64,000 nt of DNA from Methanomassiliicoccaceae archaeon (lineage in GTDB: Archaea; Thermoplasmatota; Thermoplasmata; Methanomassiliicoccales; Methanomassiliicoccaceae), in assembly GCA_963728405.1 (NCBI GenBank), contig CAVSJV010000002.1, positions 96,001 through 160,000 on the forward strand, read 5' to 3'. Made by a program: the position numbers and the translations under genes. This document shows, piece after piece, positions 14,738 to 45,363 of this stretch; the first letter of the stretch is position 1; every line of letters starts with the position of its first letter. Under the pieces are notes generated by a model that did not search any database, had not been told where the DNA came from, and saw only the letters and a program-made list of their open reading frames with translations.

Positions 14738-16402
14738 ATGGCAAAGGAAAAGGACAAGTTGTTCTTGGACGCAATGAAGAAGAAGTTCAAGGAGGCCCCG
14801 ACTGAGGTCAACACTCACTACTACACCTTTGGTGGCTGGAAGCAGTCCAAGAGGAAGAGAGAGTGGGTTGAGCAGGCCAACAAGATCGCCAAGGCCCGTG
14901 GCATCCCGATGATGAACCAGGACATTGGTGTTCCTCTCGGCCAGCGTGTCTTGATGCCCTACCAGCTGTCTCACACCGACATCTACGCTGAGGCTGATGA
15001 CCTGCACTTCGTCAACAACGCCGCTATGCAGCAGGCGTGGGATGATATCCGCAGGACCGTCATCTCTGGTCTGGACACCGCTCACCAGGTTATCGAGAAG
15101 AGGCTGGGCAAGGAAGTTACTCCTGAGACCATCAACCACTACCTCGAGACCGTGAACCACGCTATGCCCGGTGGCGCAGTCGTGCAGGAGCACATGGCCG
15201 AGTGCAGCCCCGCCCTAACCGCGGACTGCTATGTGAAGGTCTTCTCCGGCGATGACGAGCTCATCAGCCAGATCGACAAGCGCTTCGTGATCGACATCAA
15301 CAAGGAGTTCCCGAAGGACCAGGCCAAGCAGCTGAAGGACGCTATTGGCAAGTCCCTGTGGCAGAAGGTCGCGTGCCCGACCATCGTCGGCCGTGTCTGC
15401 GACGGCGGTACTATGTCCCGGTGGAGCGCCATGCAGATCTCGATGTCGTTCATCAGCGCGTACCGGCTAGCTGCCGGTGAGGCCGCCATCGCGGACTTCG
15501 CCTTCGCTGCCAAGCACGCGTCGGTCGTAGAGATGGGTACCATGATGCCCGCCAGGCGTGCACGTGGCCCCAACGAGCCCGGTGGAATTCCATTCGGGTT
15601 CCTGGCCGATATGGTCCAGTCCTACCGTACCCACCCTGACGACCCTGGCAGGGCTGCCCTGGAAACCGTCGCTCTCGGCGCGGTCATCCTGGACCAGATC
15701 TACCTCGGGTCGTACATGTCCGGCGGTGTCGGATTCACCCAGTACGCTACTGCGGCCTACACCGACGACATCCTGGAAGACTACACCTACTGGGCCCTTG
15801 ACCTGATCAAGACCAAGTATGGTGGGCTGTGCAAGAGCAAGCCTTCCATGGAACTGATGGACAAGCTCGGAACTGAGGTCAACTCCTATGCGCTGGAAAT
15901 GTATGAGAGGTACCCGTCTGCGATGGAAGCCCACTTCGGTGGCTCCCAGCGTGCGACCGTTGCCGCCGCCGCCACTGGTATCGCTTGCGCGATGGCCACT
16001 GGTAACGCCGACTTCGGTGTCAACGGCTGGTATCTGTCAATGATGCAGCACAAGGAAAGGCACGGCCGCCTAGGCTTCTACGGGTACGACCTGCAGGACC
16101 AATGCGGTGCAGCCAACTCGTTCTCCTACAGGAGCGACGAGGGCCTGCCCTTCGAGCTCAGGGGCCCGAACTACCCCAACTACGCCATGAACGTCGGTCA
16201 CCTGTCCGGATACGCCGGCATAGCGGCAGCCTCTCACGCGGCCCGCGGCGACGCTTTCGCCTGCAGCCCGCTGATCAAGGTCGCCTTCGCCGACAAGAAC
16301 ATGCCGTTCGACTTCGGAAACATCACGAAGGAGTTCGGCCGTGGCGCCCTCAGGGAGTTCATGCCTGCTGGCGAAAGGTCCGTAATCATCCCCGCTCAGT
16401 GA
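14738..16402 (+). CDS. mcrA: Methyl-coenzyme M reductase subunit alpha
   Basis: [53 protein letters not shown] and NYAMNVGH motifs. Confidence 0.99.
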
Positions 16403-29280: not shown

Positions 29281-30876
29281 ATGGAAGCCGCTGCGGACAC
29301 TTCTGAGAAATTTCAAGGTTCAATCGTACAAAAGCTTGAGAGAGAGATAGGCGCAGAGAACGTCAAGATCAGCAAGATGGAGAGATTGCTGTACAGCCAT
29401 GACCTGGCTCCCTTGCCCAAGGAAGCCCAGATGGCCTTCAAGATCATTCCGGACGTTGTGGTGCGCCCCCGCTCCGTCGAGGACGTATCCAAGATCGTAA
29501 AGCTGGCCGCCCATGAAGGGGTACCGATCACCCCCCGCGGCGCCTCGACCTGGGGGCTGGCCGGGGCCGTCCCCGCGTTCGGCGGCATCCTGATCGACAT
29601 GATCGGCGGGATGGGTAAGGTCCTCAATATCGACGAGGAGAACATGACCATCACCTGCCAGGGCGGCGCTTCCTGGAAGCAGGTCTACGACGCCGCGTGG
29701 GAAAAAGGGTTCCTTCTTGGGTCCTACCCCAGCAGCTTCCCGTCTGCCTCAGTGGCTGGATGGATCTCCACCGCCGGTGTCGGAGTGGGCAACTACAAGT
29801 ACGGATCGGCCGGGGACAACATTCGCAGCATGAAGGTAGTGATTCCAGACGGGTCCATCGTCGAGACCGGGTTCGAGACCCTCTCGGACAACATGTCCGG
29901 ATACAACCTGAACCGCCTGTTCGTCGGCGCGGAGGGAACGCTCGGTGTCATCTGCGAGGTCACTTTCAAGCTGACCCCGCGGCCGGAAGTGCTCCGCGCC
30001 CTCGCCTATGCCTTCCCCAGCCTGGATAAGCTCCAGGGGCCCATCAAGGACATCACCCGCTCGAGGGTCAGCCCGCTCCACGTTGCGTGGTCCGACGCCA
30101 ACCACTTCAAGTTCCTGAGAAAGGTCCACCCCAATGCCCCCAACGTGGGCTCGCTACTCCTGGTCACTCTGGAAGGTGACAAGGCCGTCGTGGACCATGA
30201 AGAGAAGGTCATCGACGAGATCGCCGCCAAGCATGGTGGGGCCAAGCAGAGCAGCGAGATCGCTACCCATGAGTGGGACGAGCGGTGCTACGAGTTCCGC
30301 TCTCGCGAGGTCGGCCTGGGTGCAATCCCTATGGAAGTGCTCGTGCCGGTCAACGACTACGCGGCCATGACCAACGATCTCTACGACCTAATGGCCTCGA
30401 TGAAGATGGAGGGCGCCATTATCGGCATATTGACCGACCGCAACACGGTCATGTTCATGCCGTACTACATGTACGACAGCGAGTCCCTCAGCAAGAGCGT
30501 GACGTCCCTTTCGTTCAACTACAAGTGTGGCGATCTGGCCTACAAGAACAACGGCCGGATGCTGGGTGGCTTCGGCCTGTTCTTCGGCTCGCTCCTGAAG
30601 CGGGTCCGTGGGGAAGGCTATGAGGTCGAGGTGGCCATCAAGAAGGCCATCGATCCCAAGGACATCATGAACCCTGGCAAGCTGCTGGGTATGAAGACCC
30701 GCTTCGGCCTGCCGATCGGACCGGGCATGCTGGGCTTCGGAATGGGCGCCATGGCCACGGTCAAGAAGGTCCTGCCGGGCGACAAGAACATGGATAAGAA
30801 GGGCAGCGACTTCGAGCTGGAGAATCTGGAGAAGGAAAAGTTCGAGCAGCACAAGAACGACCCGCTCAAGAAGTAA
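29281..30876 (+). CDS. FAD-binding oxidoreductase (GlcD/D-lactate dehydrogenase-like)
   Basis: PDVVVRP, ITPRGA, GYNLNRLFVGAEGTLG and IKKAIDP.DIMNPGK motifs; GGAGG RBS; strong codon bias. Confidence 0.85.
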   Translation: MEAAADTSEKFQGSIVQKLEREIGAENVKISKMERLLYSHDLAPLPKEAQMAFKIIPDVVVRPRSVEDVSKIVKLAAHEGVPITPRGASTWGLAGAVPAFGGILIDMIGGMGKVLNIDEENMTITCQGGASWKQVYDAAWEKGFLLGSYPSSFPSASVAGWISTAGVGVGNYKYGSAGDNIRSMKVVIPDGSIVETGFETLSDNMSGYNLNRLFVGAEGTLGVICEVTFKLTPRPEVLRALAYAFPSLDKLQGPIKDITRSRVSPLHVAWSDANHFKFLRKVHPNAPNVGSLLLVTLEGDKAVVDHEEKVIDEIAAKHGGAKQSSEIATHEWDERCYEFRSREVGLGAIPMEVLVPVNDYAAMTNDLYDLMASMKMEGAIIGILTDRNTVMFMPYYMYDSESLSKSVTSLSFNYKCGDLAYKNNGRMLGGFGLFFGSLLKRVRGEGYEVEVAIKKAIDPKDIMNPGKLLGMKTRFGLPIGPGMLGFGMGAMATVKKVLPGDKNMDKKGSDFELENLEKEKFEQHKNDPLKK

Positions 30877-30951
30877 ACCCTTTATTCCAAATCTCTTACT
30901 CTTTATCCATTTTTTAAAAATAATGAGGGGGGGACCCGGAGGTCCTTTTTT

Positions 30952-31122
30952 CTACTGTCTCGAGGTGGTCCTGATCTGCTCCTTGGACCACTTATCGGGG
31001 TGGGCGTCGAACTTAGCCTTGCATCCCGCTGAGCAGAAGTAGAATGTCTTCCCCTCGTACTCGCTCATGTACTCTGCTCCCTGCTCATCCACCTCGCATG
31101 CGCAAACTGGGTCCTGTGGCAT
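30952..31122 (-). CDS. YHS/TRASH-domain metallochaperone (56 aa)
   Basis: MPQDPVCACEVDE...YEGKTFYFCSAGCKAKF. Confidence 0.8.
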   Translation of the reverse strand: MPQDPVCACEVDEQGAEYMSEYEGKTFYFCSAGCKAKFDAHPDKWSKEQIRTTSRQ

Positions 31123-31166
31123 TTTTACACCTGCAGGCAACGTTCGAGCTGGGGGGATATCAAGAT

Positions 31167-31313
31167 TTACTTTTTCAGGTACTTCTGGGGGTCCTTGTCG
31201 AACACCTTCTTGCATCCCGGAGCGCAGAAATAGTAGGTCTGTCCGTTCAGCTCGGACTTCCACTTGGCGGTCTTCTCATCTACATCCATCTTACATACTG
31301 GGTCCACTGCCAT
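31167..31313 (-). CDS. YHS/TRASH-domain metallochaperone (48 aa, not in the ORF track)
   Basis: Translated by hand: [48 protein letters not shown]. Its start overlaps the copA stop. Confidence 0.85.
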   Translation of the reverse strand: MAVDPVCKMDVDEKTAKWKSELNGQTYYFCAPGCKKVFDKDPQKYLKK

Positions 31314-33831
31314 TATTTCTTCACCTCTTTCTTCTTTATTTCCGGCGTATAGCGCTTGAGCAGCAGGGCGTTCGTAACCACGGACACCGAGCTCATGGCC
31401 ATGGCTGCCGCGGCCACGATGGGGTTCAGCAGCACGTGGAAGAACGGGTACAGGATACCCGCGGCGATGGGTATGCCGGCCGAGTTATAGCCCAGCGCCC
31501 AGAAAAGGTTCTGCCGGATCTTCGACATGGTCCTCCTGGACAGCTGGATGGCCGCCACGACGTCGGTGAGGTCGCTTTTTATCAGCACGATGTCCCCTGT
31601 CTCCATGGCCACATCCGTGCCGCTGCCGATGGCGATCCCGACGTCCGCCTGGGCCAAAGCCGGGGCGTCATTGATGCCGTCGCCCACCATGGCGACCTTC
31701 TTGCCTTCGCCCTGCAGCCTGGCCACTTCATTCGCCTTGTTCTCTGGGAGCACTTCGGCGATATACTTGTCTATGCCGACCTGCAGGGCGATGACCCTCG
31801 CGGTCCGCTTATTGTCGCCGGTGAGCATGATCACGTCGATCCCCATCTTCTTTAGTTCGGAGATCGCCTCTTTGGATGTCTCCTTGATGACATCCGCCAC
31901 TCCGATGATACTGGCCAGATGGCCGTCCACCGACATGAGCATGGCGGTACGGCCCTCTTCCTCCAGCTTTTGAAGGGTCTGCTCCGATGAGGTCACCGAG
32001 ATCCTGTTGACCTCCATCAGCTGGCGGTTCCCCACCAGCACGAGCTTCCCGTCGACCTGGGCCCTGATCCCCTGTCCGGGGATGGCCTCAAAGCTGGAGG
32101 CGTCCGCTACCTCGATGCCGTCATGCCTGGCCCTCCTCACAATGGCCTCGGCCAGCGGGTGTTCGGAGCCTTTCTCGGCCACTGCAGCGTAGCGCAACGC
32201 GTCCTGTTCGGACATCCCCAGGGCGATGACGTTGGTGACCTCGGGCTCACCTTTGGTGATGGTGCCGGTCTTGTCCAGCACTACCGTCTGCACCTTTCCG
32301 GCGGTCTCCAGGGACTCGGCGCTCTTGAACAGTATCCCGTTCTCCGCGCCTTTGCCCGAGCCGACCATGATGGCCGTTGGCGTCGCCAGGCCGAGGGCAC
32401 AGGGGCAGGAGATGACCAGGACCGAGATGAAGATTATAAGCGAGAAGACGAAGGATTGTCCTTCGTTCACCAGCTCCCCATATGCGTAGAAGTACCACAC
32501 CAAGAAGCTGATCGAGGCCAGCAGGATAACCACGGGAACGAACCATGCCGATACGTTATCCGCCAACCTCTGGATGGGAGCTTTCGAGGCCTGGGCGTCC
32601 TCTACTAAGCTGATGATCTGGGCGAGGGCGGTGTCCTTGCCGACCTTGGTGGCCTGGACCTTAAGCACGCCGTTCTTATTGATCGAACCACCGATAGCGC
32701 TCGAACCGGCGCTCTTCTCCACCGGAATCGACTCTCCAGTGATCATGCTCTCGTCCACCGCCGAGCTGCCCTCGATCACCTGTCCGTCCGTGGCTATCTT
32801 TTCGCCGGGACGGACGACGAAGACATCGTCGACCTTGAGCAGCTCCACCGGGTACTTCGACCTCCTGCCCATCTCGAAGCACGCGGGCGGTGCGGGCCTG
32901 GAGGCCGATCAGCTCTCTGATGGCCTGTGAGGTCCGTCCCTTGGCCTTGGCCTCAAGATACTTACCGAACAGGATGAGCGAGATGATCATGGCCGAGGTG
33001 TCGAAGTAGACGTTGAGAGTAAAATGGAATGAGCCCGGGCAGGAATACCACGACGACCGAATAGACGTAGGCCGTGGTAGAGCCCATGGCGATGAGGGTG
33101 TCCATATTGGCCCGTCTATTCTTTAGGGCGTAGTACGTGCCGATGTAGAACTGGTAACCAGCGATGAACTGCACTGGGGTGGCTAGGGCGAAGAGCAGGT
33201 AGCCTTCGTAGCCCACGATGCCCAACGTGTCGGCGAGACCGAAGAAGTCGAAGCTGATCATCAGCAGCATGATCGGAACGCTGAGCGAGAGGGAGAATAT
33301 CAGGAGGTATAACTGCCTCCGCTGTTCCTTCTCCCTTTCGGCCATCTCCGTATCCAGGGTCTCGGCCTCGATGACCTCGTAGCCGGAATCGGCTATCGCC
33401 GCCTTCAGGACCGGGACGGTCACCTGTTCCGGATTGTAGCGGATGAATACCTTCTCGGTCGCCAAGTTCACGTTGGCCGAGTAGACACCATCAAGGGCCA
33501 ACAGCGTCTCCTCGATGATCTGCACACAGGAGGCACAGGTCATGCCCTTTACGCCGATCGAGATCTGGTCGACCGCTATATCGTATCCGGCGTCCTTCAC
33601 CGCCTTCTGGATGGCATCAGGAGACACCTTCGTAGGGTCGTAGATCACTCGGGCCTTTTCCGTGGCCAGGTTGACCGAGGCCTGCTCCACTCCTGGCAGT
33701 TCCCCTATGGCCCCCTCGATGATCCCGGCGCAGGAAGCGCAGGTCATACCGGTAACTCCGAACGTTGCTGCTTTCCTGTCCAATGGGGGCGGTTTCAGTG
33801 GGCAGGTCTCCTCACCGCAGGGCTCGGTCAT
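31313..33831 (-). CDS. copA: Copper-exporting P1B ATPase (frameshifts at ~33020 and ~32850)
   Basis: Two GMTCASC HMA domains, [34 protein letters not shown] and MAMSS motifs. Confidence 0.92.
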
Positions 33832-33990
33832 AATGTCGAATCCCCTCACCTGACACTTGTAGTTATCCCCTGAGGATGTTGACTAGTTGGAAACGTTTCT
33901 TTGATAAATGGAAGGAAATGTAATGAAACGGAGCCTTCTGCCTTCCCCTTGGAAAAAAGATATAACTACCATGCTCCCAAGGAATCCTTC

Positions 33991-34584
33991 ATGAGCCTTG
34001 ATGAGAATGATGTCAATATTCTCCACGCACTCCAAGGGAACGGTCGCCTCTCCTTCCGCCAGGTATCCGAGAAGGTAAAGATCAGCGTGCCCACCGTTAG
34101 CAACAAAGTGGGGATAATGGAAAAGCTCGGGGTGATCAAGGGTTACCGGGCGGACCTGGACCCAGAACGTCTCGGGGAGCTGAGTGCTATGGTCACTGTC
34201 AAGGCTAAGCCGGCCGAACTTTCAGCGGTGGCTGACCACTTCGATGACGATGAACAGGTCCGTCAAATGTTCTACCTGAGCAGCGGTCGCCTGCTGTTGG
34301 TTTGTACATTCGTTGGAGCGCACCAGATCAACGAGTTCGCTGCCAAGCTCGGCTCGATCCCGGAGGTCCTGGAATACGACATCGCTAACGTTATAAGTGT
34401 GGCCAAGGAGCTGGACCGGGCAGTGGTTGCTTCAGGCCTGAGCGTGGTGATGCAGTGCACCCAATGCGGGAGGGAAATGAGGGACGAACCGATCCGACTT
34501 AAGGAGAATGGGAAGGACTTCTACCTGTGCTCCCCGACCTGTATGAATGCCTTTCAGGCCCGGCCGGCCCGTTTGGGCACCTGA
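33991..34584 (+). CDS. Lrp/AsnC regulator with C-terminal TRASH domain (CopT/CopR-like)
   Basis: HTH plus CTQCG...FYLCSPTC; divergent from copA. Confidence 0.85.
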   Translation: MSLDENDVNILHALQGNGRLSFRQVSEKVKISVPTVSNKVGIMEKLGVIKGYRADLDPERLGELSAMVTVKAKPAELSAVADHFDDDEQVRQMFYLSSGRLLLVCTFVGAHQINEFAAKLGSIPEVLEYDIANVISVAKELDRAVVASGLSVVMQCTQCGREMRDEPIRLKENGKDFYLCSPTCMNAFQARPARLGT

Positions 34585-34965
34585 TCATCGTCTATGGGCG
34601 ACAACTTCGATCTCGACCCTGGCCCCCAAGGGCAGGGCGCTGACGGCCACAGTGCTGCGGGCCGGAGGGTCGTGAGCAAAGGAACGTGCATAGCTCTCGT
34701 TGACCTCTTTGAAATCGGCCATGTCAGTGACGAATATGGTGGTCTTGACCACATCCGCCATAGAGCACCCAGCAGATATTAGGACCGCTTCTAGGTTCCT
34801 GAGGGCTTGGCGGGCCTGTTCGGCCGCTCCGTTACCGACCAGCATGCCATTGGATGGATCGATGCCGATCTGGCCAGAGCAATAGATCACTTGACCATGG
34901 GCGATGGCCTGCGAATAGGGCCCCACCGGGCGGGGGGCCTTCTCGGTTTGGATGACCGCTCTCAT
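34585..34965 (-). CDS. ridA: RidA family reactive-imine deaminase
   Basis: AP..VGPYSQA, SGQIG.DP and PPARS.V.V..LP....VEIE motifs. Confidence 0.9.
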   Translation of the reverse strand: MRAVIQTEKAPRPVGPYSQAIAHGQVIYCSGQIGIDPSNGMLVGNGAAEQARQALRNLEAVLISAGCSMADVVKTTIFVTDMADFKEVNESYARSFAHDPPARSTVAVSALPLGARVEIEVVAHRR

Positions 34966-34991
34966 CCGTCCGGCATCCATGAGCTGGATAT

Positions 34992-35696
34992 TTACTCTTT
35001 TTTGATGCCAAGCAGGGCCGGCAGTTCGTCCACACTGGCTATAACGGTGGGGCAATCGCATTTCTTCCAGTCTCGCCAGTCGAACGAACCGGTCAGCACT
35101 CCGACGAACTGGGCCGAGGTCGAGCGCGCGCAGGTGAGGTCCATTGAATGATCGCCCACCATGAGACAGTTCTCCGAGGGTATCCCGAGCAATGAGGCCA
35201 CACGTTCCATGGCCTTTCCATTAGGTTTGGCCTCTTCCTCGGGGTGATCGTCCCGACATACCATGGCATCGAATCCTTGTTTCAGGCCTGCATTCCGGAG
35301 CGCTGCCAGGGCATAAGCGCGGGAGCCCCTTGTCAGCAGGCCGATCATTAGCCCATGCTCCTCTAAGATGCGAAGGCAATCGCCCGCTCCCCCGACCGGC
35401 CGGGTTTCGGAGACTTTCTCCATCTCGGTCAGGTCCATCAGCCTGCCGACCTCATCCCGGAGGTCCATCTCCTCCGCTCCCCGCCCCCGCGACGCGAGGT
35501 CCTTGATCCCCCGGTCAAGGTTGTTCACGATGGTGTCCTGAGGGTCCAATAGTGTCAGTTTAACGCCCCGTCGGGTCAGTTCCTCTAATAATCGCTGCTT
35601 CATCTTCCGGAAGTCCACCGACGTGTGGATGAGCGTACCATCGAGGTCGAAGACCACCGCTTCGATGACTCTGTCCCCGAATCTCAACGAGGTCAC
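34992..35696 (-). CDS. HAD-family hydrolase
   Basis: FDLDGTL, KP and MVGD motifs. Confidence 0.88.
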   Translation of the reverse strand: MTSLRFGDRVIEAVVFDLDGTLIHTSVDFRKMKQRLLEELTRRGVKLTLLDPQDTIVNNLDRGIKDLASRGRGAEEMDLRDEVGRLMDLTEMEKVSETRPVGGAGDCLRILEEHGLMIGLLTRGSRAYALAALRNAGLKQGFDAMVCRDDHPEEEAKPNGKAMERVASLLGIPSENCLMVGDHSMDLTCARSTSAQFVGVLTGSFDWRDWKKCDCPTVIASVDELPALLGIKKE

Positions 35697-35823
35697 TCGT
35701 GGTCCATGCTCCTTCCGCTATTTTAGGGCAACGTTCAGGCACGCTATTAACGGTATTTAATATTTCAGTGCCAGATGGTGGATTATTGGTCCGTTTTAAG
35801 GAGTTCAGTATTTAAAGTTAACT

Positions 35824-35852
35824 GGAGCATGCTCAACGACCCATTTTATATT
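35824..35852 (+). promoter_or_regulatory. Palindrome GAGCATGCTC and TATA box upstream of the repeat array
   Basis: GGAGCATGCTCAA (35824-36), then TTTATATT (35845-52). The same 13-mer occurs at 39051-63. Confidence 0.6.
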
Positions 35853-35903
35853 CACAAATCAACCCCGGAACATCAGATAATTGGGTAGGGAAAGGTGGAA
35901 AAA

Positions 35904-35930
35904 ATGTTTGGAAGCATCGGTCCGCACTAA
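35904..35930 (+). CDS. Putative micropeptide MFGSIGPH, copy 1
   Basis: AGGTGGAAAAA-ATG TTT GGA AGC ATC GGT CCG CAC TAA. Confidence 0.5.
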   Translation: MFGSIGPH

Positions 35931-36018
35931 CTGTCCAAATACACTCCCTGCGGGGAGAGAAACACTAGAAACTCGATCACAGGTTCGCGATTGAAAAAAG
36001 CTGGAAGAGGTGGAAAAA

Positions 36019-36045
36019 ATGTTTGGAAGCATCGGTCCGCACTAA
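36019..36045 (+). CDS. Putative micropeptide MFGSIGPH, copy 2
   Basis: GAGGTG SD 6 nt before ATG; identical ORF. Confidence 0.5.
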   Translation: MFGSIGPH

Positions 36046-36132
36046 CGTCCAAATACACTCCCTGCGGGGAGAGAAACACTAGAAACTCGATCACAGGTTC
36101 GCGATTGAAAAAAGCTGGAAGAGGTGGAAAAA

Positions 36133-36159
36133 ATGTTTGGAAGCATCGGTCCGCACTAA
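36133..36159 (+). CDS. Putative micropeptide MFGSIGPH, copy 3
   Basis: GAGGTG SD 6 nt before ATG; identical ORF. Confidence 0.5.
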   Translation: MFGSIGPH

Positions 36160-36246
36160 CGTCCAAATACACTCCCTGCGGGGAGAGAAACACTAGAAAC
36201 TCGATCACAGGTTCGCGATTGAAAAAAGCTGGAAGAGGTGGAAAAA

Positions 36247-36273
36247 ATGTTTGGAAGCATCGGTCCGCACTAA
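36247..36273 (+). CDS. Putative micropeptide MFGSIGPH, copy 4
   Basis: GAGGTG SD 6 nt before ATG; identical ORF. Confidence 0.5.
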   Translation: MFGSIGPH

Positions 36274-36312
36274 CGTCCAAATACACTCCCTGCGGGGAGT
36301 ATTCCTCCTGAT

Positions 36313-39007
36313 TTATATTCCAATTTTTGCTATCGTTTCTTCGACCTTCGCTTTTAGCATGGTGGCGGAACCATCGGTCGAGATCTGTAGGGCTTCATTC
36401 AAGAGGTTGGATGCGCCCTCGAAGTCCCCGCTCTTCAGGTACTCCTGGGCAACTTCATAGAGCATCATCCCTAGGGCCAATGGCACATTGATCTTCCGAA
36501 TGCCTTCTATGGCGGTTCTGAACTCCTCCTTGGCCCATTCCCACTCCATCTTCCGGTTGTAGATGCCTCCCTTGATCATGTGAAGGTCGGCAAGATTGAA
36601 TTGGTTGTTCAACTTCTCGAAGATCTTGAATGCAGAATTAAGGTATTCTTCCGCCTGGTTAAGCTCATCGAGCTCCAACATGGCGTTAGATGCATTGCGG
36701 AATGCATAGGCCTGTAACTCCAGATTACCGGAGGTTCGCCCCATCTCAATGGCCCTTTCCTGGTACCTAACGGCCTCGGAAAACTTGTTGATATCCGCAA
36801 AGCTCCCACCCAATCCTATGAGCACTCTGGCGATATCATCGACGTCGCCGGTCCGTTCGATAATGCTCAGGGCTTCCTTCTTGTACAGGATGGCCTGAGC
36901 ATGATCCATCTGTGCCGAATGGACCAATCCTATGCCATAGAGCGCTTTTCCTAGACCGTTATCGTCGAGGTTGGCCTGTGCCAGCCCCTTGGACTTCTGG
37001 AAGAAATCGATCGCTTCCAGGTAGCGTCCCCGGCTTCTCAACACCCCGCCCATGTCATAATAGGTCTCCACAAGAGCATGGGGGTCAGTGATGCCCTCGG
37101 CCAATCGAAGGCTTCGGGCCAGATACTCTTCGGCCTTTTCATAGTTCGACCAGCGGATATGAACGACGCCGATCCGCCTGTTGACCTCGGCCAGCACCCT
37201 GCGGTCCTTCTCCGGATGGGCCAGTGCAGAAACCTCCTCGAACCGAGCTATGGCCGATCGCCACTCGCCTCGGACCTCCAGGATATATCCTTCTAATAAA
37301 AGCAGTTCGATCTTCTCGCTGCGGTCGATATTGTCACATTGGCCTCTCAGGGAAGCGAGCAGTGGGGCGAACGGTAGGCCATATCCCTTGGAGATGATCT
37401 CCCGTCCCTTGCTAGCGGCTATCCTCACTGCCATGCTAAATTCCCTGGCCATGAGACAATGGTACATCGCCTCCACATTGGCAGGGGCCGATGTGTCGGT
37501 GAGATAGTATCGAGATGCTGCCTTATGATAGCTTATCCTCTGTCGGGGAGTGAGGCGGGAATAGAAGAAGTCCCTCAGGAGATCGATGCATGCCGATCAT
37601 GCGGCCGATCGACTCGACCATCAGGGATTTGGCCAGTAGGGTGTCGAGGGTGTCATAGTCTACGAGGTAGTCCTTGTAGTCCATTTCCTTCCGAACCATT
37701 CCGTATTCCTTGGCGATCTCCTCCTCCATGGTGTAGAATGCGTCCACCATCACCGGATAGCGGAATATGGAGGCGATCTCCAAGATGCGTCGTTCCGTGA
37801 CATCAAGCTTGGCGTACACCTCCTGCTCGATGAACATACGGATGTTCTTGCCCAGCGCGCTGCGGGGGTTGTCCACAAGCTCCAGGAATAGAGGGTGGCC
37901 CCGGGTCGCCTTGTAGATGTCCAAAAGGTCCGGCTCCGGTAGCTCCCGGCCACGCATCAATTTGAGGCTGCTTTCGAGGTCCAGACCATCCAGCATCATC
38001 TCTGATACCAGCCCATTGAACACTGCGCTGCGGGAATAGAATGAAGGGATCTCTCGGCTAGTGCAAAGGACGGACACATGCTCGAGCGATTCGAGGACAC
38101 CTGCCAGCGCCGTAAGGAAGTCCTGTACCGACTGATCGGCCTTCTGGACATCATCGATAATGAAGACCGTCGGCAGGTCCTTGAGCTCCGTCTCCAGTAT
38201 GGAGGTGACCTCCCCCACCATGGGCGTATCGGTCCTGGAAATGTACCGTTCTAGTCCCTTCCTTCCCAGCTGGGACAGGAACTCGGCGATGGGGGTCAGG
38301 AGGATCTCTAGGTTTACCCATTCATGGACCCGATACCAGTATACGTTCCTCTGCTCCCGGACATCCTGTACGAACTTGGCAAGTAAGGTGGTCTTTCCGA
38401 TGCCAGGGATACCACAGATCACCAGCAACCGGGCAGTGTCCGAATCGAGGAACGACGCCAGCTTTTGTAGTTCATGCTGACGACCGTAGAATGTTCTGAC
38501 CGTGGGCTTTCGATCAGTATAGTCAACGAACCTCCTTTCCTCCTTGGCCTTCCCCTCATGAAACGAAGAGCAGTCGAAATGGCCTCTGGAGACGCCTAGC
38601 GCGAGGTCCAAGAAGGCGTAGCGTTTTGGCAGGAAGAGGCTCAGCTTACCCATCTCCTCCTCGTGACTCTTCCCGTCAAAATCGATGATGACTATCTTGG
38701 TACGCTCCAGATCAGCCTTGAGTTCTAGGGAAGTCTGGTACCCCTTTGGGGTTAAGAAATACACCTTTTTTACGCTGGCGAACCCTTTCACATGCTTGGT
38801 GTGAACCTCGATTATGCCATCGGAAGCCAGCGCATTGACCACCTTGGACACGTTATTCCTGCCCACCTCCACCGCATCGGCGATACCCTCCTGAGTGATC
38901 GATGCAGGAGCGTCGGAGTCCTGCAGGTATCTTTGATATGCCAGTAGGTGCAAGAGCACCCTCTCACGGACAGTGAGCAAAGATTTCTTGGAGGACCGGT
39001 TCAACAC
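36313..39007 (-). CDS. HTH-STAND (NB-ARC-like) ATPase-TPR regulator (frameshift at ~37585)
   Basis: N-terminal HTH (TQEGIADAVEVGRNNVS), FYGR, Walker A GIPGIGKT, Walker B FIIDD and GHPL. Removing one base restores an MHDLL motif and joins the C-terminal TPR array. Confidence 0.82.
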
Positions 39008-39050
39008 GACTGGAAGCGGTTGTTAGACAAAATAATTTTCTAGACTAAAA

Positions 39051-39077
39051 GGAGCATGCTCAAAACGGTATTATATA
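39051..39077 (+). promoter_or_regulatory. Palindrome GAGCATGCTC and TATA box of the DUF835 gene
   Basis: GGAGCATGCTCAA (39051-63), then ATTATATA (39070-77), in the intergenic region divergent from the STAND gene. Confidence 0.6.
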
Positions 39078-39118
39078 CGCAAAATCCGACCCCTATCTGC
39101 GAAATAAGGTGATCTAAG

Positions 39119-39671
39119 ATGAAGAGCGATTCAAGAATATCATTGCTCATCGAAGGATACCCCCGGACCGGTTACCAGACCTATTCCCGGATCGTTGGTC
39201 GGTCGACTAGGGGGCTATGCATCTCCCGTCTGCACCCTGATTATGTAGCCAAGAAGTACGGTCTGGAGATGTCCAAGAGGTACTGGCTGAGCGGCCAGAA
39301 GGGTGAAGAGGTCATCGCACCGAAATCACTTCACCAGCTCATCAAGGTCGTCCGCTCCGAACTTAGGGGACGTGCCGGCGGTTCGATCTTCATGGACGGT
39401 CTTGAGTATCTGCTGTTGTTCAATGACCTAGGTAAAGTGATGGCCGCCATGGACGAGCTTGATGTCCTGCTCAAGGCCGCCAATGTTGAACTCATCGTCT
39501 CCGTGGACCCCCTGACCTTCGAGCAGAAGGACAGTTGAGAAGCTTTGGGGTTCATTCCCCCGGTACACCACCGAGGAAATGTTGATGAAGCACCCTATAG
39601 AACAATCTCAGCATATCTCCGAAGACGAGCCAATGAGCGCTGGTCAAGGGATTGCGGGTCTAAGGGTATAA
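39119..39671 (+). CDS. DUF835 protein (frameshift at ~39533 near the C-terminus)
   Basis: GLCISRLHP, YWLS, IFMDGLEYLLLFND and VDP motifs. Confidence 0.8.
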
Positions 39672-40155
39672 GAAGGATGGCCCCCGAGGCCATTACTAGG
39701 TCGTTGATCTGCTCCACGAACATCTGGACCCTGTTGAAATCGTTGAACAGGCACAAGTACTCGATGCCGTCGAGCAGTATCACCGCGTTCTTTTTTCCTA
39801 TCAGGAAACCGTCGATGCGATTGATGACCCTGTGGAGTTGGTCCGGCGGGATGTTGTTAGCACCATTGCGCTCGCTCAACCAGATGGACTCGAGCGACTG
39901 GTCGGGCATCCTCTCGTGTAATAGGTCTGGATGCATTCGGGAAACGCACATGGTGCTTGAGCCAGAATAGATGAGGTCTTGGAGGATCTTAAGGGTCTTG
40001 TCCATCCGTTTTTCGCAAATGAGATAGACCCTACCGTAGTCGAACAGGAGCGTATCCTCCCCCGTATTGGTATTGAGGGAATGAATGCTTACGGTGTCAT
40101 CTTTCAGTGATCCAGGCACGAACAAAGGCCACACCCTATAATTCTGTCTCGACAA
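39595..40155 (-). CDS. DUF835 protein (start uncertain)
   Basis: MCVSRMHP, IWLS, VILLDGIEYL.LFNDF and LDP..L motifs. Confidence 0.8.
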   Translation of the reverse strand: MSRQNYRVWPLFVPGSLKDDTVSIHSLNTNTGEDTLLFDYGRVYLICEKRMDKTLKILQDLIYSGSSTMCVSRMHPDLLHERMPDQSLESIWLSERNGANNIPPDQLHRVINRIDGFLIGKKNAVILLDGIEYLCLFNDFNRVQMFVEQINDLVMASGAILLIPLDPQSLDQRSLARLRRYAEIVL

Positions 40156-40412
40156 ATTATATGCCGTCTAGATTGTGGTATGAATATTAATAACCGACTG
40201 CGGACCTCAAATATTGACCTGCTCAGTGCCACCTGGCCCTATCCAGGCTACCGCCATCCTGCAGGATGCGGTGACCGATGTGTATCGCTTCCAGGCAACC
40301 GTTCTTATGTGCCTGTACCCGCTTCTTCTCCCCCCATGCACGATGATGGTGACTATAAGTTAGGCGATAACGCCGCGGTTCTAAAGAAAATATGGAGGAA
40401 GGGGTTTGTAGC

Positions 40413-41738
40413 TCAGTTGCCGTTTCCGCCTTTCAGCTCGCCGTGGATGTACTTCCCGTAGCCGACCATATCAAGCAGGCCGTGGCCGGATAGATTGAAG
40501 ACGATGATCTTCTCCTCGTTCTTCTTCTTGGCCTCCAGGGCCTTATCGATGGCCGCCTTGATGGCGTGCGAGCTCTCCGGGGCGGGGATGATGCCCTCGG
40601 TCTTAGCGAACGTTATGGCTGCCTCGAACGTTTCCACCTGATCATAGGCCATAGGTGTGACGTAATTCAGTTTGGTTACCAACGAGACGGTGGGGGCCAT
40701 GCCGTGGTAGCGCAGTCCACCGGCGTGGATCGGCGAGGGCATGAATTCGTGGCCGAGGGTGTACATCTTGAACAGCGGGGTCATGCCGGCAGTGTCGCCG
40801 AAGTCGTAACGGTACTCCCCAGCTGTTAGTGACGGGACAGATGTCGGTTCGACCGCGATGAATTCGGTGTCGATCTGGCCCTTGATCTTCTTCTCGAGCA
40901 TGGGGAAGCTGAATCCCGCGAAGTTGCTGCCCCCACCTACGCAACCGATCATGTAATCCGGCACGATGTCAAGATAGTCCAGCTGCTGTATGACCTCCTG
41001 ACCGATGACGGTCTGGTGGAGCATGACATGGTTCGCCACGCTGCCTAGTGCATATTTGGTGTTATTCTGATTCACGCAGGTCTCGATCGCCTCGGAAATG
41101 GCTATTCCAAGAGATCCGGGGTGGTTGGGGTCCTTTTCCAGTAGCTGCCGGCCAAAGGAGGTCTCCTTGCTCGGGGACGCGTAAACCTGGCCGCCATAGG
41201 TTTCCATTATTAGCCGGCGGAAGGGCTTCTGGTCGAAAGAAACACGGACCATGAACACTTTGCAGTCCATATCAAAGTGCGCGCAGGACAGTGCCAGGGC
41301 GGTACCCCATTGCCCCGCCCCAGTCTCGGTTGTAAGGTGCTCCACTCCTTCTTTCATGTTATAATAGACCTGAGCTATGGCCGTGTTAGGCTTATGAGAA
41401 CCGCCTGGGCTGAGGTCTTCCCGCTTGAAGTAGATCTTAGCAGGGGTCTTCAGGAACGCCTCCAGCCTCCTGGCCCTTTGCAGGGGAGAGGGGCGTCCGA
41501 GCATCACGTAGGCATCGCGGACCTCTTCCGGGATGTCGATGTACCGTTCGCTGGCCATCTCCTGGGCGATGATGGCCTTGGGGAAGATAGCCTCCAGTTC
41601 TTGAGGTGTGGATGGCTGCATGGTCCTTGGATTGAGGGGTGGGGGGACCGGTTCAGGGAGATCAGCGGCTATATTGTACCACTTGGTGGGGATGTCGTCC
41701 ACCGTGAGCATGACCTTGTCGTCCTTGTGAATGGACAT
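40413..41738 (-). CDS. trpB: TrpB2-type tryptophan synthase beta chain
   Basis: [31 protein letters not shown] and [10 protein letters not shown] motifs. Confidence 0.93.
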
Positions 41739-41800
41739 ACAGGGCCAATAATACTGAGAAATATATAACACTATTGTGTAATGATGTACATATAGTTACA

Positions 41801-43568
41801 TTATCCACAGCTTTCACACTGCATAGCGCCCTCTTCGGCATGTATGGACCTGCCACAGGCAGGGCAGGTGCTGGTATCCTTGATGGTCGTTAGGACCTGA
41901 CCCGGCTTGGATCCTTCCCGATATACGGTAAGCCCTTTGCACCCTTTGAGATGGGCATAGGTCAAGGCATGGTAGATATCCTTCCAAGACGCCGTCGCCG
42001 GGAGATTAATGGTCTTAGAAACGGCATTGTCCACATGCTTCTGGAACGTCGCCTGCAGGTCGATCTGCAGTTCGGCCGGGACCTCATGGGCAGTGACGAA
42101 GATGTCCCGCACTTCCTTCGGTATCTCTTCGATGTCATGAACGGAATGCGCCCCAGTCATCTTGCGCAGCAGCTCCGGTGAGTAGAACCCTCCCTGCTTG
42201 GCCGCCGATATGAATAAGGGAAGCACCTCTTCGAAATGTTGACCATCCATCACATTTCGGGAATAGGAAACCGCATAATATGGCTCGATCCCCGAGGAAC
42301 AACCGGCGATGAGGCTGATGGTGCCAGTGGGAGCGATCGACAGCACTGTAGCGTTCCGGCGGGGTCCTATGATGACCGAGTCACCGATATTGGGAAAGCT
42401 CCCTCTTGATTCCGCGATGCGCCGCGAGGCATTCTCGGCCTGTTTCCTGATGAATGATATTAGCCTATCCGCCAGCTCCAGAGAGCTGCTGCTGCCGTAA
42501 CGAACGTTCATGCGTACCAGCATATCAGCGAAGCCCATTATCCCCAGTCCGATCTTGCGATTGCCTTTAACGATAACATCGGTCTGATGCAACGGAAAGC
42601 GATTGGCGTCGATGACAGTTGTCGAGGAATCGAACACCCAGGTCAACGGTCCGGCCGAGCTTGTCCCAGTCGATCTTCCCGCCATCGACCATCCTGTTGA
42701 GGTTTATGGAGCCGAGATTGCAGGCCTCGAACGGTAGGAGGGGCACCTCCCCGCACGGGTTGGTCGCCTCGATCGGTCCCAGGGCGGGCGTGGGATTGGA
42801 ACGATTTACCGAGTCGATGTAAAGTACGCCTGGGTCTCCCGACCGCCAGGCCGACGTGGCAATCCTCTCCAGTATGTATGAGGCGGATACGCTGCGCATT
42901 GCGCCCCCGGTCCTGGGGTTGATGAGATCATAGTCCTCTCCCCTGGCCGCCCTCGCCATGAACTCGTCAGTCACTGCCACGGAGAGGTTGAAGTTTGAGA
43001 ACGAGGTCAGGTCTTCCTTGGCATGGATGAACTTTTCGATATCCGGGTGGTCGACCCTTAGGACCCCCATGTTCGCTCCCCTCCTCCTACCGCCCTGCTT
43101 GATCGATTCAGTCGCCGCGTCGAACACCTTCATGAAAGAAACGGGGCCGGAGGCGATGCCACCGGTGGAACCTACCTCATCGCCTTCCGGCCGAAGTCTC
43201 GAGAACGATAGGCCGGTGCCACCACCGGTCTGCTGGACGATGGCCGCGAACTTGATCGCGTCATAGATGCTCTCGATGGAATCCTCGACCGGTATCACGA
43301 AGCAGGCCGACAGCTGTTGGATCCTGGTTCCCGCGTTCATCAGGGTCGGGGAGTTAGGTAGGAACTCCAGTTCGCGCATGGCCCGATAGAACTCGTCCTC
43401 TTCACCCAAGCGGTCCTGGTACCTCTCATTGATCGAGGAAATGTTCCTGGCCACCCGTCGGAACATCTCATCAGGTGATTCCAGCGTTCTTCCTTCCTGC
43501 CCCTTCATCAGGTATCTCTTCTCCAGTAATTGGAGGGCGTTAGGTGAGAGAGCGGGAGGCTCAGGCAT
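41801..43568 (-). CDS. nrdJ: Class II (B12-dependent) ribonucleotide reductase (frameshift at ~42617)
   Basis: PNSPTLMNAG, QLSACF, RRGANM, TNPCGE, ACNLGS, IAPTGTIS and AVSKTIN motifs; C-terminal CPACG...CESCG. Confidence 0.92.
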
Positions 43569-43713
43569 CGTTCGTAGATGGTCGGCGGTAACCTAAATGA
43601 CTTGCTCCGTACGGAACGACCGGACCCCGTCGGCGCTCATTAAAAAAGAACGTAATCTATTATTATCGCGAGGACCTTCCACATTCCAACCCATTTACGA
43701 GGAGTTGTTGACA

Positions 43714-43932
43714 ATGGTCGTTAAATCTTACGAGAGCGCGTCCAAAGGGTTTACCATCGAAGTGGACCAGGAGCTGTGCGAGGGCTTGAAGGATTGTGTT
43801 GAGGTCTGCCCAGTGGATGTTTATGATCTTATCGATGGGAAGGCCGTTCCCACCCGCATCGACGCGTGCATTGAATGCTGCCAGTGCGTTGATTCCTGCC
43901 CCAAGAACGCTATCAAGCACTCGTCATGCTAG
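43714..43932 (+). CDS. Dicluster ferredoxin
   Basis: CEGLKDCVEVCP and CIECCQCVDSCP. Confidence 0.88.
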   Translation: MVVKSYESASKGFTIEVDQELCEGLKDCVEVCPVDVYDLIDGKAVPTRIDACIECCQCVDSCPKNAIKHSSC

Positions 43933-44828
43933 TAACCGTTATCGGGCTTCTTAAGCACGCCCCGGGAGTACCAGGCCCGGGCCACCTTCTTGATCCTCAG
44001 CTCCATGCGGAGGTCTGCCGAAGAGAGCATGCCCTGGTCCGTGATTATGTGGGAGAACAGGTCCAGCGGAGTGCTCTCGAAAACTTGCACGTGTTCAGTC
44101 AGGTGAGGACCCATGGGATTTGTCTTGACGACAAGATCGGAAAGCACCACGGGGCTGATCTTGCTCCATCCGCACACCGCGACTGCGGGTAGGTCGTTGG
44201 CCCTGGCCGCCTCGGCCAGCACTCGGGTCCCGACCTTGTTCACCAAGCCGGATTGGGTCACTGAATCGGCCCCGGTGATGGCCCCGTCAACATCTTCCAT
44301 TCGGGCGAAGATGGTCGAATCGTAAATGACCTCGGTCTCCATCCTGTGGTCCGAGAGTAGCTTGGCGAATTGCCTGCCCTCGCCCCCCGGGGACGCTTCC
44401 GCCACGGTCACCTTGACCTGCCGGTCCTTTGATAGGGCTTTCAGGACCTGGGCAACGGTGTCGGAATGGGAGGTGGTCATGAACCAGTTCCCCTTGATGT
44501 GCTTGAGGGATTGCTCAGCGATGCGCAGTCCGCTCCTTCTCTCCCGTTCCATCATCTCCAGGAGAGTGTCGTGCAGAAAATGGGAACCATGTGACCCATG
44601 TTCCATCTGCAACATGATGGAGTTGGCGATATTGAACACCGGGGCGATGCTCGGCTTGGCGAAATAGATGGCAACAGCGAAGTCCTCCCACTCCGGTGCG
44701 GGGATGGATGCCAGGTCATCGTCTGATATTGCCAGGAGACTGTTGAGGATGTCGCTCATCATCTCCGATGCGCCGGAATTGGCATCCTTGGCCAGGGTCT
44801 CCGCGATCTCTCTCAGGCGGGGGTCCAT
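43929..44828 (-). CDS. eIF-2B/ribose-1,5-bisphosphate isomerase family protein
   Basis: SGAS, TTSHSDTV, EASP..EG, GADSV...G.VNKVGT and FESTP....IITD.G motifs. Confidence 0.8.
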   Translation of the reverse strand: MDPRLREIAETLAKDANSGASEMMSDILNSLLAISDDDLASIPAPEWEDFAVAIYFAKPSIAPVFNIANSIMLQMEHGSHGSHFLHDTLLEMMERERRSGLRIAEQSLKHIKGNWFMTTSHSDTVAQVLKALSKDRQVKVTVAEASPGGEGRQFAKLLSDHRMETEVIYDSTIFARMEDVDGAITGADSVTQSGLVNKVGTRVLAEAARANDLPAVAVCGWSKISPVVLSDLVVKTNPMGPHLTEHVQVFESTPLDLFSHIITDQGMLSSADLRMELRIKKVARAWYSRGVLKKPDNGY

Positions 44829-44889
44829 GCTACCAGTATAAGGAATGGAGCTATAATGATTTTTAAAAGGAAAGGGGTTTGGACCCGCC

Positions 44890-45363
44890 TCAAGCGTAGG
44901 ACGAGATCACTTCATCGGAGATATGCTCCAACTTAACGAGCTTCTCATGATAATGGTTCCTGGGGTCCAAACTTATGATCAAATTGCTGCCGTCCTCATT
45001 GATCTTATTCGTGGTCCTGGCCAGGACGTCCAGTACGGGGCGGAAGCCGTTCCACATCTCAAGAACGTCCAGTCCGTTAAGGACGATGATCCCCTCCTTG
45101 TTCACGGCCAAGAAATTATTAATATTGTTCTCGAACGCCTGCAGGTTCATCGGTGGGATGCAGTCTGGGTTGGGGCGTGTGCTCAGCCACATGGTCTCCA
45201 GCATCTGCTCGTCAAAGTCCAGCTGGCTTCTCAGCAGCCGGGGCGGGTTCTTTGAGATATACAGGGTCTTCCGACCTTTATCGAGTTCCTTCCTCAGGAC
45301 CTGATGCGTCCGCAATGGTACCCGTTCCTCGAACAGGTAGAACTTCCCCTTTAATAACTTCAT
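44890..45363 (-). CDS. DUF835 protein
   Basis: LYISKNPP, MWLS, IIVLNGLDVL..WNGF and LDP motifs. Confidence 0.75.
   Translation of the reverse strand: MKLLKGKFYLFEERVPLRTHQVLRKELDKGRKTLYISKNPPRLLRSQLDFDEQMLETMWLSTRPNPDCIPPMNLQAFENNINNFLAVNKEGIIVLNGLDVLEMWNGFRPVLDVLARTTNKINEDGSNLIISLDPRNHYHEKLVKLEHISDEVISSYA

Follow-up and report, generated by a model that had tools for sequence, protein, structure and literature searches.

The described systems closest to the locus reported here are the RRNPP systems of Firmicutes and phages (Rap/Phr, NprR/NprX, PlcR/PapR, PrgX, Rgg/SHP, AimR/AimP), in which a small gene for a secreted pro-peptide lies beside the gene of its receptor, a cytoplasmic tetratricopeptide repeat (TPR) protein with a helix-turn-helix (HTH), and in which the peptide gene is controlled by its own product through an operator. 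As far as is known, RRNPP pro-peptides carry one core. For archaea, the known signals are acyl-homoserine-lactone-like molecules or diketopiperazines, and we know of no peptide pheromone-receptor pair from any archaeon. With regard to receptor architecture, PH0952 of Pyrococcus horikoshii (PDB 6mfv; PMC6468293) and MalT combine an N-terminal winged-HTH effector, a nucleotide-binding oligomerization domain (NOD), an arm and a TPR sensor. Here, we analysed a stretch of 64,000 nt from a Methanomassiliicoccaceae archaeon (GCA_963728405.1, contig CAVSJV010000002.1, positions 96,001 to 160,000; in the following the window), in which an array of four identical 8-residue open reading frames (ORFs) faces the gene of such an HTH-STAND-TPR regulator, accompanied by two DUF835 genes.

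Our favoured reading, to which we give slightly better than an even chance, is that the PH-ending peptide of this locus is the ligand of a PH0952/MalT-like, autoregulating STAND receptor and that the window holds a leaderless, cell-autonomous variant of the module. An initial annotation of the same DNA had already suggested that the STAND protein senses MFGSIGPH and controls both the array promoter and the DUF835 promoter in a feedback loop. This idea gains from the conservation of the module, from selection on the peptide core, from co-variation of core and receptor and from the co-occurrence of the operator. It has to be revised insofar as the usual form of the peptide gene is a multi-copy precursor with a leader, and the loop is further weakened by a regulator gene that is frameshifted in the assembly and by an operator that persists without the regulator in one relative (G026). 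The annotation had overlooked the frame breaks of the STAND gene and of the first DUF835 gene (DUF835-1) as well as the fact that the array is present only once in the whole genome. Its statement that no such described system was known to it from methanogens agrees with our literature searches (most subscription journals lying outside their reach), in which neither these peptides nor any archaeal signalling pair of peptide and TPR protein turned up.

We compared the genome holding the window (G000, 2.73 Mb) with 60 relatives, i.e., 61 genomes in total. The host is a methanogen, since the window encodes, at 15692-16072, a domain of methyl-coenzyme M reductase alpha (McrA); all coordinates below refer to the window unless a contig is named. 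The nearest relative, G003, shows 84% nucleotide identity to the window.

Peptide genes in the window and in its relatives

Tandem Repeats Finder reports a single tandem array at 35889-36299 (plus strand; period 114, 3.6 copies, 99% matches), which consists of four units (115, 114 and 114 nt plus a shorter last one). Each unit is composed of a Shine-Dalgarno (SD) sequence (GAGGTGG), an 8-codon ORF for MFGSIGPH and a hairpin CTCCCTGCGGGGAG; the segment GGTGGAAAAAATG is found once per unit, at 35894, 36009, 36123 and 36237. The four mini-ORFs (35904-35930, 36019-36045, 36133-36159 and 36247-36273, all on the plus strand) share the same codons including the stop (ATG TTT GGA AGC ATC GGT CCG CAC TAA), and a TATA box lies upstream of the array. 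This is in accordance with the initial annotation of four identical SD-led 8-residue ORFs behind a promoter, as is the distance of 13 nt between the array end (36299) and the stop codon (36313-36315) of the convergent STAND gene. A hairpin follows every mini-ORF, and T-rich tracts are found only 3' of the last unit. Downstream of the array lies the 3' end of the convergent gene, i.e., there is no regulated gene on the same strand as expected for a leader-peptide or upstream-ORF attenuator.

The mini-ORFs of G003 and of the window are identical in 27/27 nt, while the spacer carries substitutions and indels. The hairpin is kept in G003 though its stem sequence differs. Two longer ORFs run through the array, at 35991-36311 (plus strand, 106 aa) and 35927-36286 (minus strand, 119 aa), which are open because 114 = 38 x 3. 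We rejected both, because the spacer differs between G000 and G003 by indels and substitutions while the 27-nt mini-ORF is unchanged, and because relatives have a PH-ending ORF at an equal offset from the promoter. Outside the window, G000 contains two further exact six-frame matches of FGSIGPH (C2:237352, plus strand; C18:74291-74353, minus strand), both of which use different codons and run antisense to an evident protein gene around them. Although only 0.012 such matches are expected, the two are probably due to chance.

An ortholog of the STAND gene (N-terminal half, E<=1e-133) is found in 39 of the 60 relatives. In 38 of these, the gene behind the conserved promoter of palindrome and TATA box encodes a PH-ending peptide; in the one remaining genome, G060, part of the locus is masked. 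The peptide gene is convergent with the STAND gene in 34 cases and located on another contig in the remaining four, where the STAND contig ends at this place. That is, the short-ORF repeats that the initial annotation expected next to orthologous HTH-STAND-TPR genes do recur, usually as copies within one ORF, and the condition under which that annotation would have been refuted does not apply. In this ORF, whose ATG is preceded by an SD-like GGTG or GAGG, a leader resembling a signal peptide is followed by 1-12 copies of (x)IPxx[DESP]PH. For 34 of 35 precursors, the leader consists of a K/R n-region with 1-3 Lys/Arg and a hydrophobic stretch of 22-32 aa that is free of charges. The cores follow each other either head to tail (IIPGIDPH in genus g1, TIPLIDPH, IIPGLEPH, AIPFIDPH, TIPVLDPH) or spaced (IPVNDPH, IPVSDPH, IPGNDPH, IPGNSPH); in the genera g11, g13 and g14, neither the length nor the sequence of the spacers is constant. 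The final PH directly precedes the stop codon in 27/35 precursors; the five of genus g8 extend four residues further, and in the other three the ORF is truncated by masked bases or by the end of a contig.

Two lineages have no leader. Beside G000/G003 with their separate SD-led MFGSIGPH ORFs, this is G057, whose precursor (L060, G057:C1, minus strand) starts with a hydrophilic N terminus of 18 residues (MKVKSTVNYHNVRSRGKN) followed by eight MPLPGVGPH units. An extra Asn follows every third unit, and the three versions of the unit differ at synonymous sites only. G057 is thereby a second leaderless lineage with a G[IV]GPH core, independent of the first. Separate 8-residue ORFs are found only in G000 and G003 and are a derived form; the multi-copy precursor, with predicted secretion, is the usual one.

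Selection on the core is readable from the precursors. Among the core units within one gene, summed over 26 precursors, we count 1020 synonymous versus 7 non-synonymous pairwise codon differences. In G010, all eight units are different in their nucleotides and identical in their amino acids. At the codon level, this shows that the precursor cores are translated and that the 7-mer itself is under strong purifying selection. Invariant cores together with freely varying spacers are the pattern expected of peptides that are released from a precursor.

No family in NCBIfam or PADLOC is matched by the precursor, and the homologs that databases contain of it are unnamed or labelled 'hypothetical protein' without a precomputed Pfam domain; one carries the label 'Methanomassiliicoccales archaeon'. 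In two loci (L066 of G042 and L079 of G052:C123) the peptide repeat changes its frame midway (IIPGTDPH... to RAQTRTSS...), owing either to a real frameshift or to an assembly error within the repeats.

Regulator, shared palindrome and neighbouring genes

The regulator gene lies on the minus strand and is split into two frames with a break at about 37585, i.e., no single uninterrupted frame covers it in the window. The N-terminal half (37586-39007), with winged-HTH-like effector and P-loop NOD, was identified by Pfam, translation and a PDB match. The C-terminal half with arm and TPR sensor (36313-37584, 423 aa) was identified in the other frame by Pfam and tblastn, in which residues 475-897 of the G003 ortholog map to 37584-36316. 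The orthologs are single ORFs of about 900-950 aa (897-954 aa from stop to stop), and the gene of G003 is intact (897-901 aa).

With regard to its domains, the initial label of an HTH/NB-ARC-like/TPR gene describes what is present, with a weak HTH. The NOD shows the motifs GIPGIGKT (Walker A) and VFIIDD (Walker B) and matches AAA_16 (E 5e-16), ATPase_2 (E 6e-13) and NB-ARC (E 1.3e-6), all above the Pfam cut-offs. At the N terminus, HTH_Crp_2 reaches 26.0 bits, below its cut-off of 27 bits, and TrmB an E-value of 0.009. The C-terminal half matches TPR_12 (E 1e-33) and TPR_MalT (E 1.7e-15, 57.6 bits with a cut-off of 45). Among PDB entries, residues 166-424 match PH0952 (6mfv_A, E 4.6e-17), as does the TPR half (E 1.7e-6). 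The best sequence matches of the TPR half in PDB are the TPRs of Pins/LGN (E about 1e-17 to 1e-18), and weak ones are seen with RapF (E 1.3e-6) and NprR (E 1.8e-5). Given these matches, the regulator is better termed a PH0952/MalT-type STAND protein with TPR sensor, for whose HTH we predict DNA binding. Membership among the antiviral STAND proteins (Avs) was rejected, since PADLOC gave only sub-threshold matches that are weak and partial (Avs4 with 15.9 bits; PDC-S27 with E 3.5e-7 over the P-loop region) and the N terminus is HTH-like. NCBIfam matches are sub-threshold, too (HaaT with E 1.1e-11; FxSxx-COOH TPR with 19-24 bits against a cut-off of 300).

Residues 5-110 of the regulator are homologous to the N termini of paralogs of about 440 aa. 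Such ORFs (about 425-480 aa) occur in most relatives, share the HTH-like N-terminal 100 residues at 30-40% identity and are often adjacent in pairs; G000:C7:84732-86374 holds open frames of 274 and 301 aa. In a phylum-wide sample of 401 genomes, 163 have a homolog of the N-terminal half at E<=1e-40. In 40 loci (36 genomes) outside the order with homologs of 28-40% identity, a coarse screen in which single-copy peptides may be missed found neither a PH-repeat ORF nor the palindrome.

The window assembly is indel-rich, because of the 20 G003 ORFs (contig C35) with 110 aa or more, 6 fall into 2-3 frames when mapped by tblastn to the syntenic 26 kb at 16059-42205. Since these neighbouring genes are hit likewise, the frame breaks of STAND and DUF835-1 are, as far as such mapping can tell, most likely assembly indels and not a decay of the module. 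We thus set aside a pseudogenisation specific to this locus as first choice. Gene calls anywhere in G000 should be treated with care given the frame-breaking indels.

The promoter core upstream of the array (35809-35851) is bidirectional. It consists of TATTTAAAG (35809-35817, the TATA box of the minus strand), the palindrome TGGAGCATGCTCAA (35823-35836) and TTTTATAT (35844-35851, the TATA box of the array) with distances of 5 and 7 nt, i.e., two opposed TATA-like boxes flank the palindrome. The 13-mer GGAGCATGCTCAA, which had been annotated at both the array and the DUF835 promoter, has exactly two occurrences in the 2.73 Mb of the genome (35824 and 39051), and a TATA-like box follows each of them after 5-7 nt; for the 10-mer palindrome alone there are 10 occurrences. 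The second candidate operator (39051-39077) lies in the intergenic region between the divergent STAND and DUF835-1 genes and is formed by GGAGCATGCTCAA (39051-39063), a gap of 5 nt and TATTATATA. Among the scanned loci with a STAND ortholog, all but L057 (G060) have it at the corresponding position. The promoter segment with the palindrome is 78-89% nucleotide-identical in 31 of the 60 relatives from five families.

We searched all 61 genomes for the operator motif AGCATGCTCAA-N3-10-TTWWAWA and used the reversed pattern as control. The motif with its TATA box is found in 38/39 relatives with the STAND ortholog versus 5/21 without it, and the control in 0/61 genomes. Within G000, it is confined to the two sites of the window. 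The position of the palindrome next to the TFB recognition element (BRE) and TATA box would fit an activator, and a repressor would also be compatible. One relative (G026) has neither the STAND nor the peptide gene and retains a single palindrome between epimerase and DUF835-1 (L077, G026:C5:33762-37804). This joint loss ties the peptide gene to the STAND gene, yet the operator persists without it. The arrangement in G026 looks as if two copies of the operator had recombined and thereby removed both genes.

A third site of the form TATA-palindrome-TATA is seen in several genera 5' of a P-loop kinase-like gene of about 175 aa (GTPGTGKS), namely in L073 (G015:C7), L074 (G039:C77), L075 (G028:C17) and L080 (G055:C197); none was found before such a gene in G000. 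Further motif matches lie on other contigs (G019:C72, G021:C15, G022:C57, G040:C2, G052:C130).

To relate peptide and receptor, the STAND orthologs were split into the HTH+NOD half (N) and the arm+TPR half. For pairs within g1 that share IIPGIDPH, both halves are equally identical (e.g., 82/84% or 90/95% for N/TPR). When G000 or G003 is compared with this group, the N half shows about 80% and the TPR half 66-71%; for G015 (TIPLIDPH) the values are 72-76% and 56-61%. This is also reflected over all 34 genomes: the TPR-minus-N identity ranges from -0.01 to -0.05 for pairs with the same core and from -0.05 to -0.19 for pairs with different cores, in every bin of N identity. That is, at equal divergence of HTH+NOD, different cores go along with a TPR identity that is about 10-15 points lower. 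The geometric mean of the TPR/NOD branch-length ratio is 1.47 on the 15 branches with a core change versus 1.08 on the 42 without (fixed maximum-likelihood topology, one-sided Mann-Whitney, p=0.02). A faster TPR evolution on core-change branches is thereby suggested, but not strongly.

On the level of single residues, the Arg of 'ALYG[IL]G-R-V' (Lys in one genome) is kept in 35/35 genomes with an IP-type core and leader; only G000, G003 and G057, i.e., the two leaderless lineages, have L, M or Q instead. In an alignment with the Pins/LGN TPRs, it falls on the Asn of their 'LGN' motif, which presumably sits on the concave, peptide-contacting face. We take the loss of this Arg, as read from the alignment, as a lead and not as proof. 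A salt bridge between the Arg and the Asp of the core as cause of the loss is weakened, since the Arg is kept with the core IPGIPPH of G011 and with Ser-cores. A complex prediction of the TPR half of G010 with four precursor repeats, run without controls, gave a score of 0.02, which is evidence neither way.

The neighbouring genes are conserved in their order as well. A HAD-family hydrolase gene (34992-35696, minus strand; Pfam HAD_2, E 1e-21) is divergent from the array. It adjoins the promoter in families f1 and f3; an NAD-epimerase gene takes this place in f2, f4 and f6, with HAD further out. Via the palindrome-bearing intergenic region common with the array, the HAD gene is a possible member of the regulon. 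On the other side, as initially annotated, the STAND gene is divergent from the first of two DUF835 genes. DUF835-1 (39119-39671, plus strand; iKaiC-like; Pfam DUF835, E 3.7e-18, 66.1 bits) is frameshifted near 39530, where tblastn continues in a second frame; its orthologs have 177-204 aa (183 aa in G003). DUF835-2 (39595-40155, minus strand; E 8.9e-29, 100.5 bits; cut-off 33.1 for both) is convergent, and the two 3' ends overlap by about 77 nt (39595-39671), which is also seen in G003. The DUF835 pair is found in 34/34 loci compared across the order, and so is the order RidA-HAD-(epimerase)-peptide-STAND-DUF835-1-DUF835-2-PALP as far as each of these loci extends.

Proposed loop and competing explanations

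While the gene order, the repeats, the selection on the core, the operator footprint and the core-TPR co-variation are observed, every biochemical step and the direction of regulation in the mechanism that we propose in the following are inferred. In the usual form, a Sec-type precursor with tandem or spaced (x)IPxx[DESP]PH cores would be exported and cut into 7-8-mers, which would be re-imported, possibly via an Opp/Dpp-type ATP-binding cassette (ABC) transporter. In the cell, the peptide would occupy the TPR groove of the cytoplasmic HTH-STAND-TPR factor, upon which the NOD would open and the protein multimerise. The N-terminal winged HTH of the multimer would then bind the 14-bp palindrome T(G/T)(G/T)AGCATGCTCAA beside the TATA/BRE of the peptide gene, the HAD/epimerase gene and DUF835-1, which would result in autoinducing positive feedback. 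In the form of the window and G003, the leader would have been lost and the unit 'SD + Met + 7-mer + stop + hairpin' would have been duplicated to four. MFGSIGPH would thus be made directly in the cytoplasm from four cistrons, such that the loop is closed inside the cell, i.e., short-circuited.

The import step would be in line with the distribution of SBP_bac_5, a binding protein of Opp/Dpp type, which is found in 37/39 relatives with the STAND ortholog versus 2/21 without it, a split that also holds inside genus g5. The SBP_bac_5 family also includes nickel and dipeptide binders. The wider claim, i.e., that the module is the first case of archaeal peptide cell-cell signalling, with a secreted multi-copy heptapeptide pheromone that is read by a STAND-TPR protein and with the window as its short-circuited form, we hold tentatively and put somewhat below an even chance.

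Several observations weigh against the peptide-receptor reading. First, the four copies of the window are identical in their nucleotides, such that selection on the mini-ORF is unreadable within G000 and the comparison with G003 is its sole test. Second, the leaderless lineages (G000/G003 and G057) have no export signal and could not report cell density by the usual route. Third, the statistics of the co-variation, the check for which had been suggested with the initial annotation, are positive and at the same time modest, with few independent events behind the p-value of 0.02 and with high TPR/NOD ratios also on several branches without core change. Conserved TPR columns that are changed in both leaderless lineages number 2/91 with an expectation of about 0.8, i.e., they are not in excess, and the Arg is kept in G011, where Pro takes core position -3, and in the Ser-core genomes. 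Fourth, the correlations of the STAND ortholog with SBP_bac_5 and with the operator are both confounded by kinship and genome size. The palindrome is kept in G026 without STAND, and single motif matches occur in four other genomes without the ortholog. Another factor could bind it, and the paralogs of about 440 aa that share the HTH are, by this homology, possible candidates. Finally, a decay of the module in G000 may be the alternative cause of the frameshifts in STAND and DUF835-1.

Unlikely, though to be reckoned with, is that the PH-repeat gene is a mere target of the regulator. Its secreted or membrane-anchored repeat product would have its own extracellular role, e.g., in His-based metal binding, as surface or adhesive material, or as antimicrobial or nutrient-related peptide, and STAND would sense another ligand. 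The signal-peptide-like leader of 34/35 precursors and the one His per 7-9 residues of the repeat are in accordance with such a role, regulators often adjoin their targets, and an uptake of metal or nutrients would explain the co-occurrence of SBP_bac_5 just as well. However, the leaderless 8-residue ORFs of G000/G003 and the hydrophilic polyprotein of G057 sit poorly with a structural or metal-binding role outside the cell. Furthermore, invariant cores between drifting spacers point to released peptides instead of a folded or polymeric product, and TPR divergence follows the core changes.

The same co-variation points to STAND when the receptor is sought elsewhere. In this improbable case, the peptide would be a signal for the two DUF835 iKaiC-like proteins or for a membrane sensor, while STAND would only regulate transcription of the module. 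Both DUF835 genes are present in all 34 loci and retained in G026 without STAND, and PMC5847659 counts DUF835 among the output domains of iKaiC type in response regulators of archaea. On the other hand, G026 keeps DUF835 and has lost the peptide gene together with STAND, i.e., the presence of the peptide follows STAND and not DUF835. TPRs are, in addition, established peptide binders, and the closest PDB sequence matches of the TPR half are Pins/LGN, RapF and NprR.

Very improbable in our view is a decaying module in G000 whose array is a relic without function or works at the RNA level, be it as a small RNA or by transcription that runs convergently into the STAND 3' end. One could cite for it the two frameshifted genes, the four nucleotide-identical units without readable selection, the 13 nt that separate the array from the STAND stop codon and the degenerate last unit in G003. 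But the frameshifts are not special to the module given 6/20 affected genes in the 26 kb of G003 synteny, and the independent assembly of G003 has an intact STAND gene, an intact DUF835-1 and the same mini-ORF, the latter without any change next to a diverged spacer. With regard to RNA function, an Rfam scan of 30000-45000 returned only two chance-level viral motifs and no match at the array, and the fold of one array unit is unremarkable (z = -1.79).

We give hardly any weight to a natural product of the kind of ribosomally synthesized and post-translationally modified peptides (RiPPs) with STAND as pathway regulator: leader, repeated cores and variable spacers resemble processed and modified multi-core RiPP precursors and there are the sub-threshold NCBIfam matches to peptide-maturation TPR proteins (HaaT, FxSxx-COOH TPR), but the conserved genes of the locus (RidA, HAD, epimerase, two DUF835, PALP) include none for a maturase, a protease or a transporter, and the leaderless 8-residue ORFs offer a maturase no recognition sequence.

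Meaning and relation to described systems

If binding is shown, peptide signal and receptor would form the first such pair for archaea. If the peptide-receptor reading is true, a physiological inducer would be assigned to PH0952-type STAND regulators, and bacterial RRNPP systems would have a functional counterpart that converged on the same working from different parts. Behaviour that depends on cell density could thereby become accessible to study in methyl-reducing methanogens. The 8-residue genes of the window would then be among the shortest functional protein-coding genes and an example of a density signal turned into a cell-autonomous switch. Independently of this, the leaderless mini-ORF array deserves attention as an 8-codon gene that is backed by comparative evidence. 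Finally, the 'pherotype' series IPGIDPH, IPLIDPH, IPGLEPH, IPVNDPH, IPGNSPH, IPFLDPH, FGSIGPH and LPGVGPH, each with its matched receptor, suits studies of specificity.

Among the described systems, eukaryotic precursors of the yeast alpha-factor type show a comparable layout of the peptide gene, i.e., a signal sequence and several identical short peptides with cleavable spacers. They differ in their eukaryotic host and in their G-protein-coupled receptor, while the receptor would be cytoplasmic here. The likeness to Pins/LGN (GPSM2) is restricted to the level of the TPR repeats. These TPRs bind extended peptides in a concave channel, and the proteins are eukaryotic scaffolds without NTPase and without HTH.

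With regard to the regulator itself, PH0952 and MalT are the nearest in domain order. The inducer of MalT is maltotriose, while the candidate inducer here is a genetically linked peptide. For PH0952, the part of the report used here (PMC6468293) names no inducer.

The RRNPP systems are alike in that a small peptide gene adjoins the gene of a presumably cytoplasmic TPR protein with an HTH-like N terminus; secretion of the pro-peptide and control of the peptide gene by its own product through an operator, as found there, are what we propose here. RRNPP signalling needs an importer of Opp type, and SBP_bac_5 co-occurs with the archaeal module. The small gene's leader is likewise seen in 34/35 precursors of the relatives, but not in the window, which is one of the two lineages without export signal. 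RRNPP receptors join the TPRs directly to the output domain without an NTPase, whereas a STAND NOD is placed between HTH and TPR here, such that activation would be a nucleotide-dependent multimerisation. Further differences are the archaeal host with its TATA/BRE promoter and the up to 12 core copies per precursor. Because of the interposed STAND NTPase and the different host and promoter type, the module is not a member of the RRNPP family: it resembles RRNPP in its working and not by descent.

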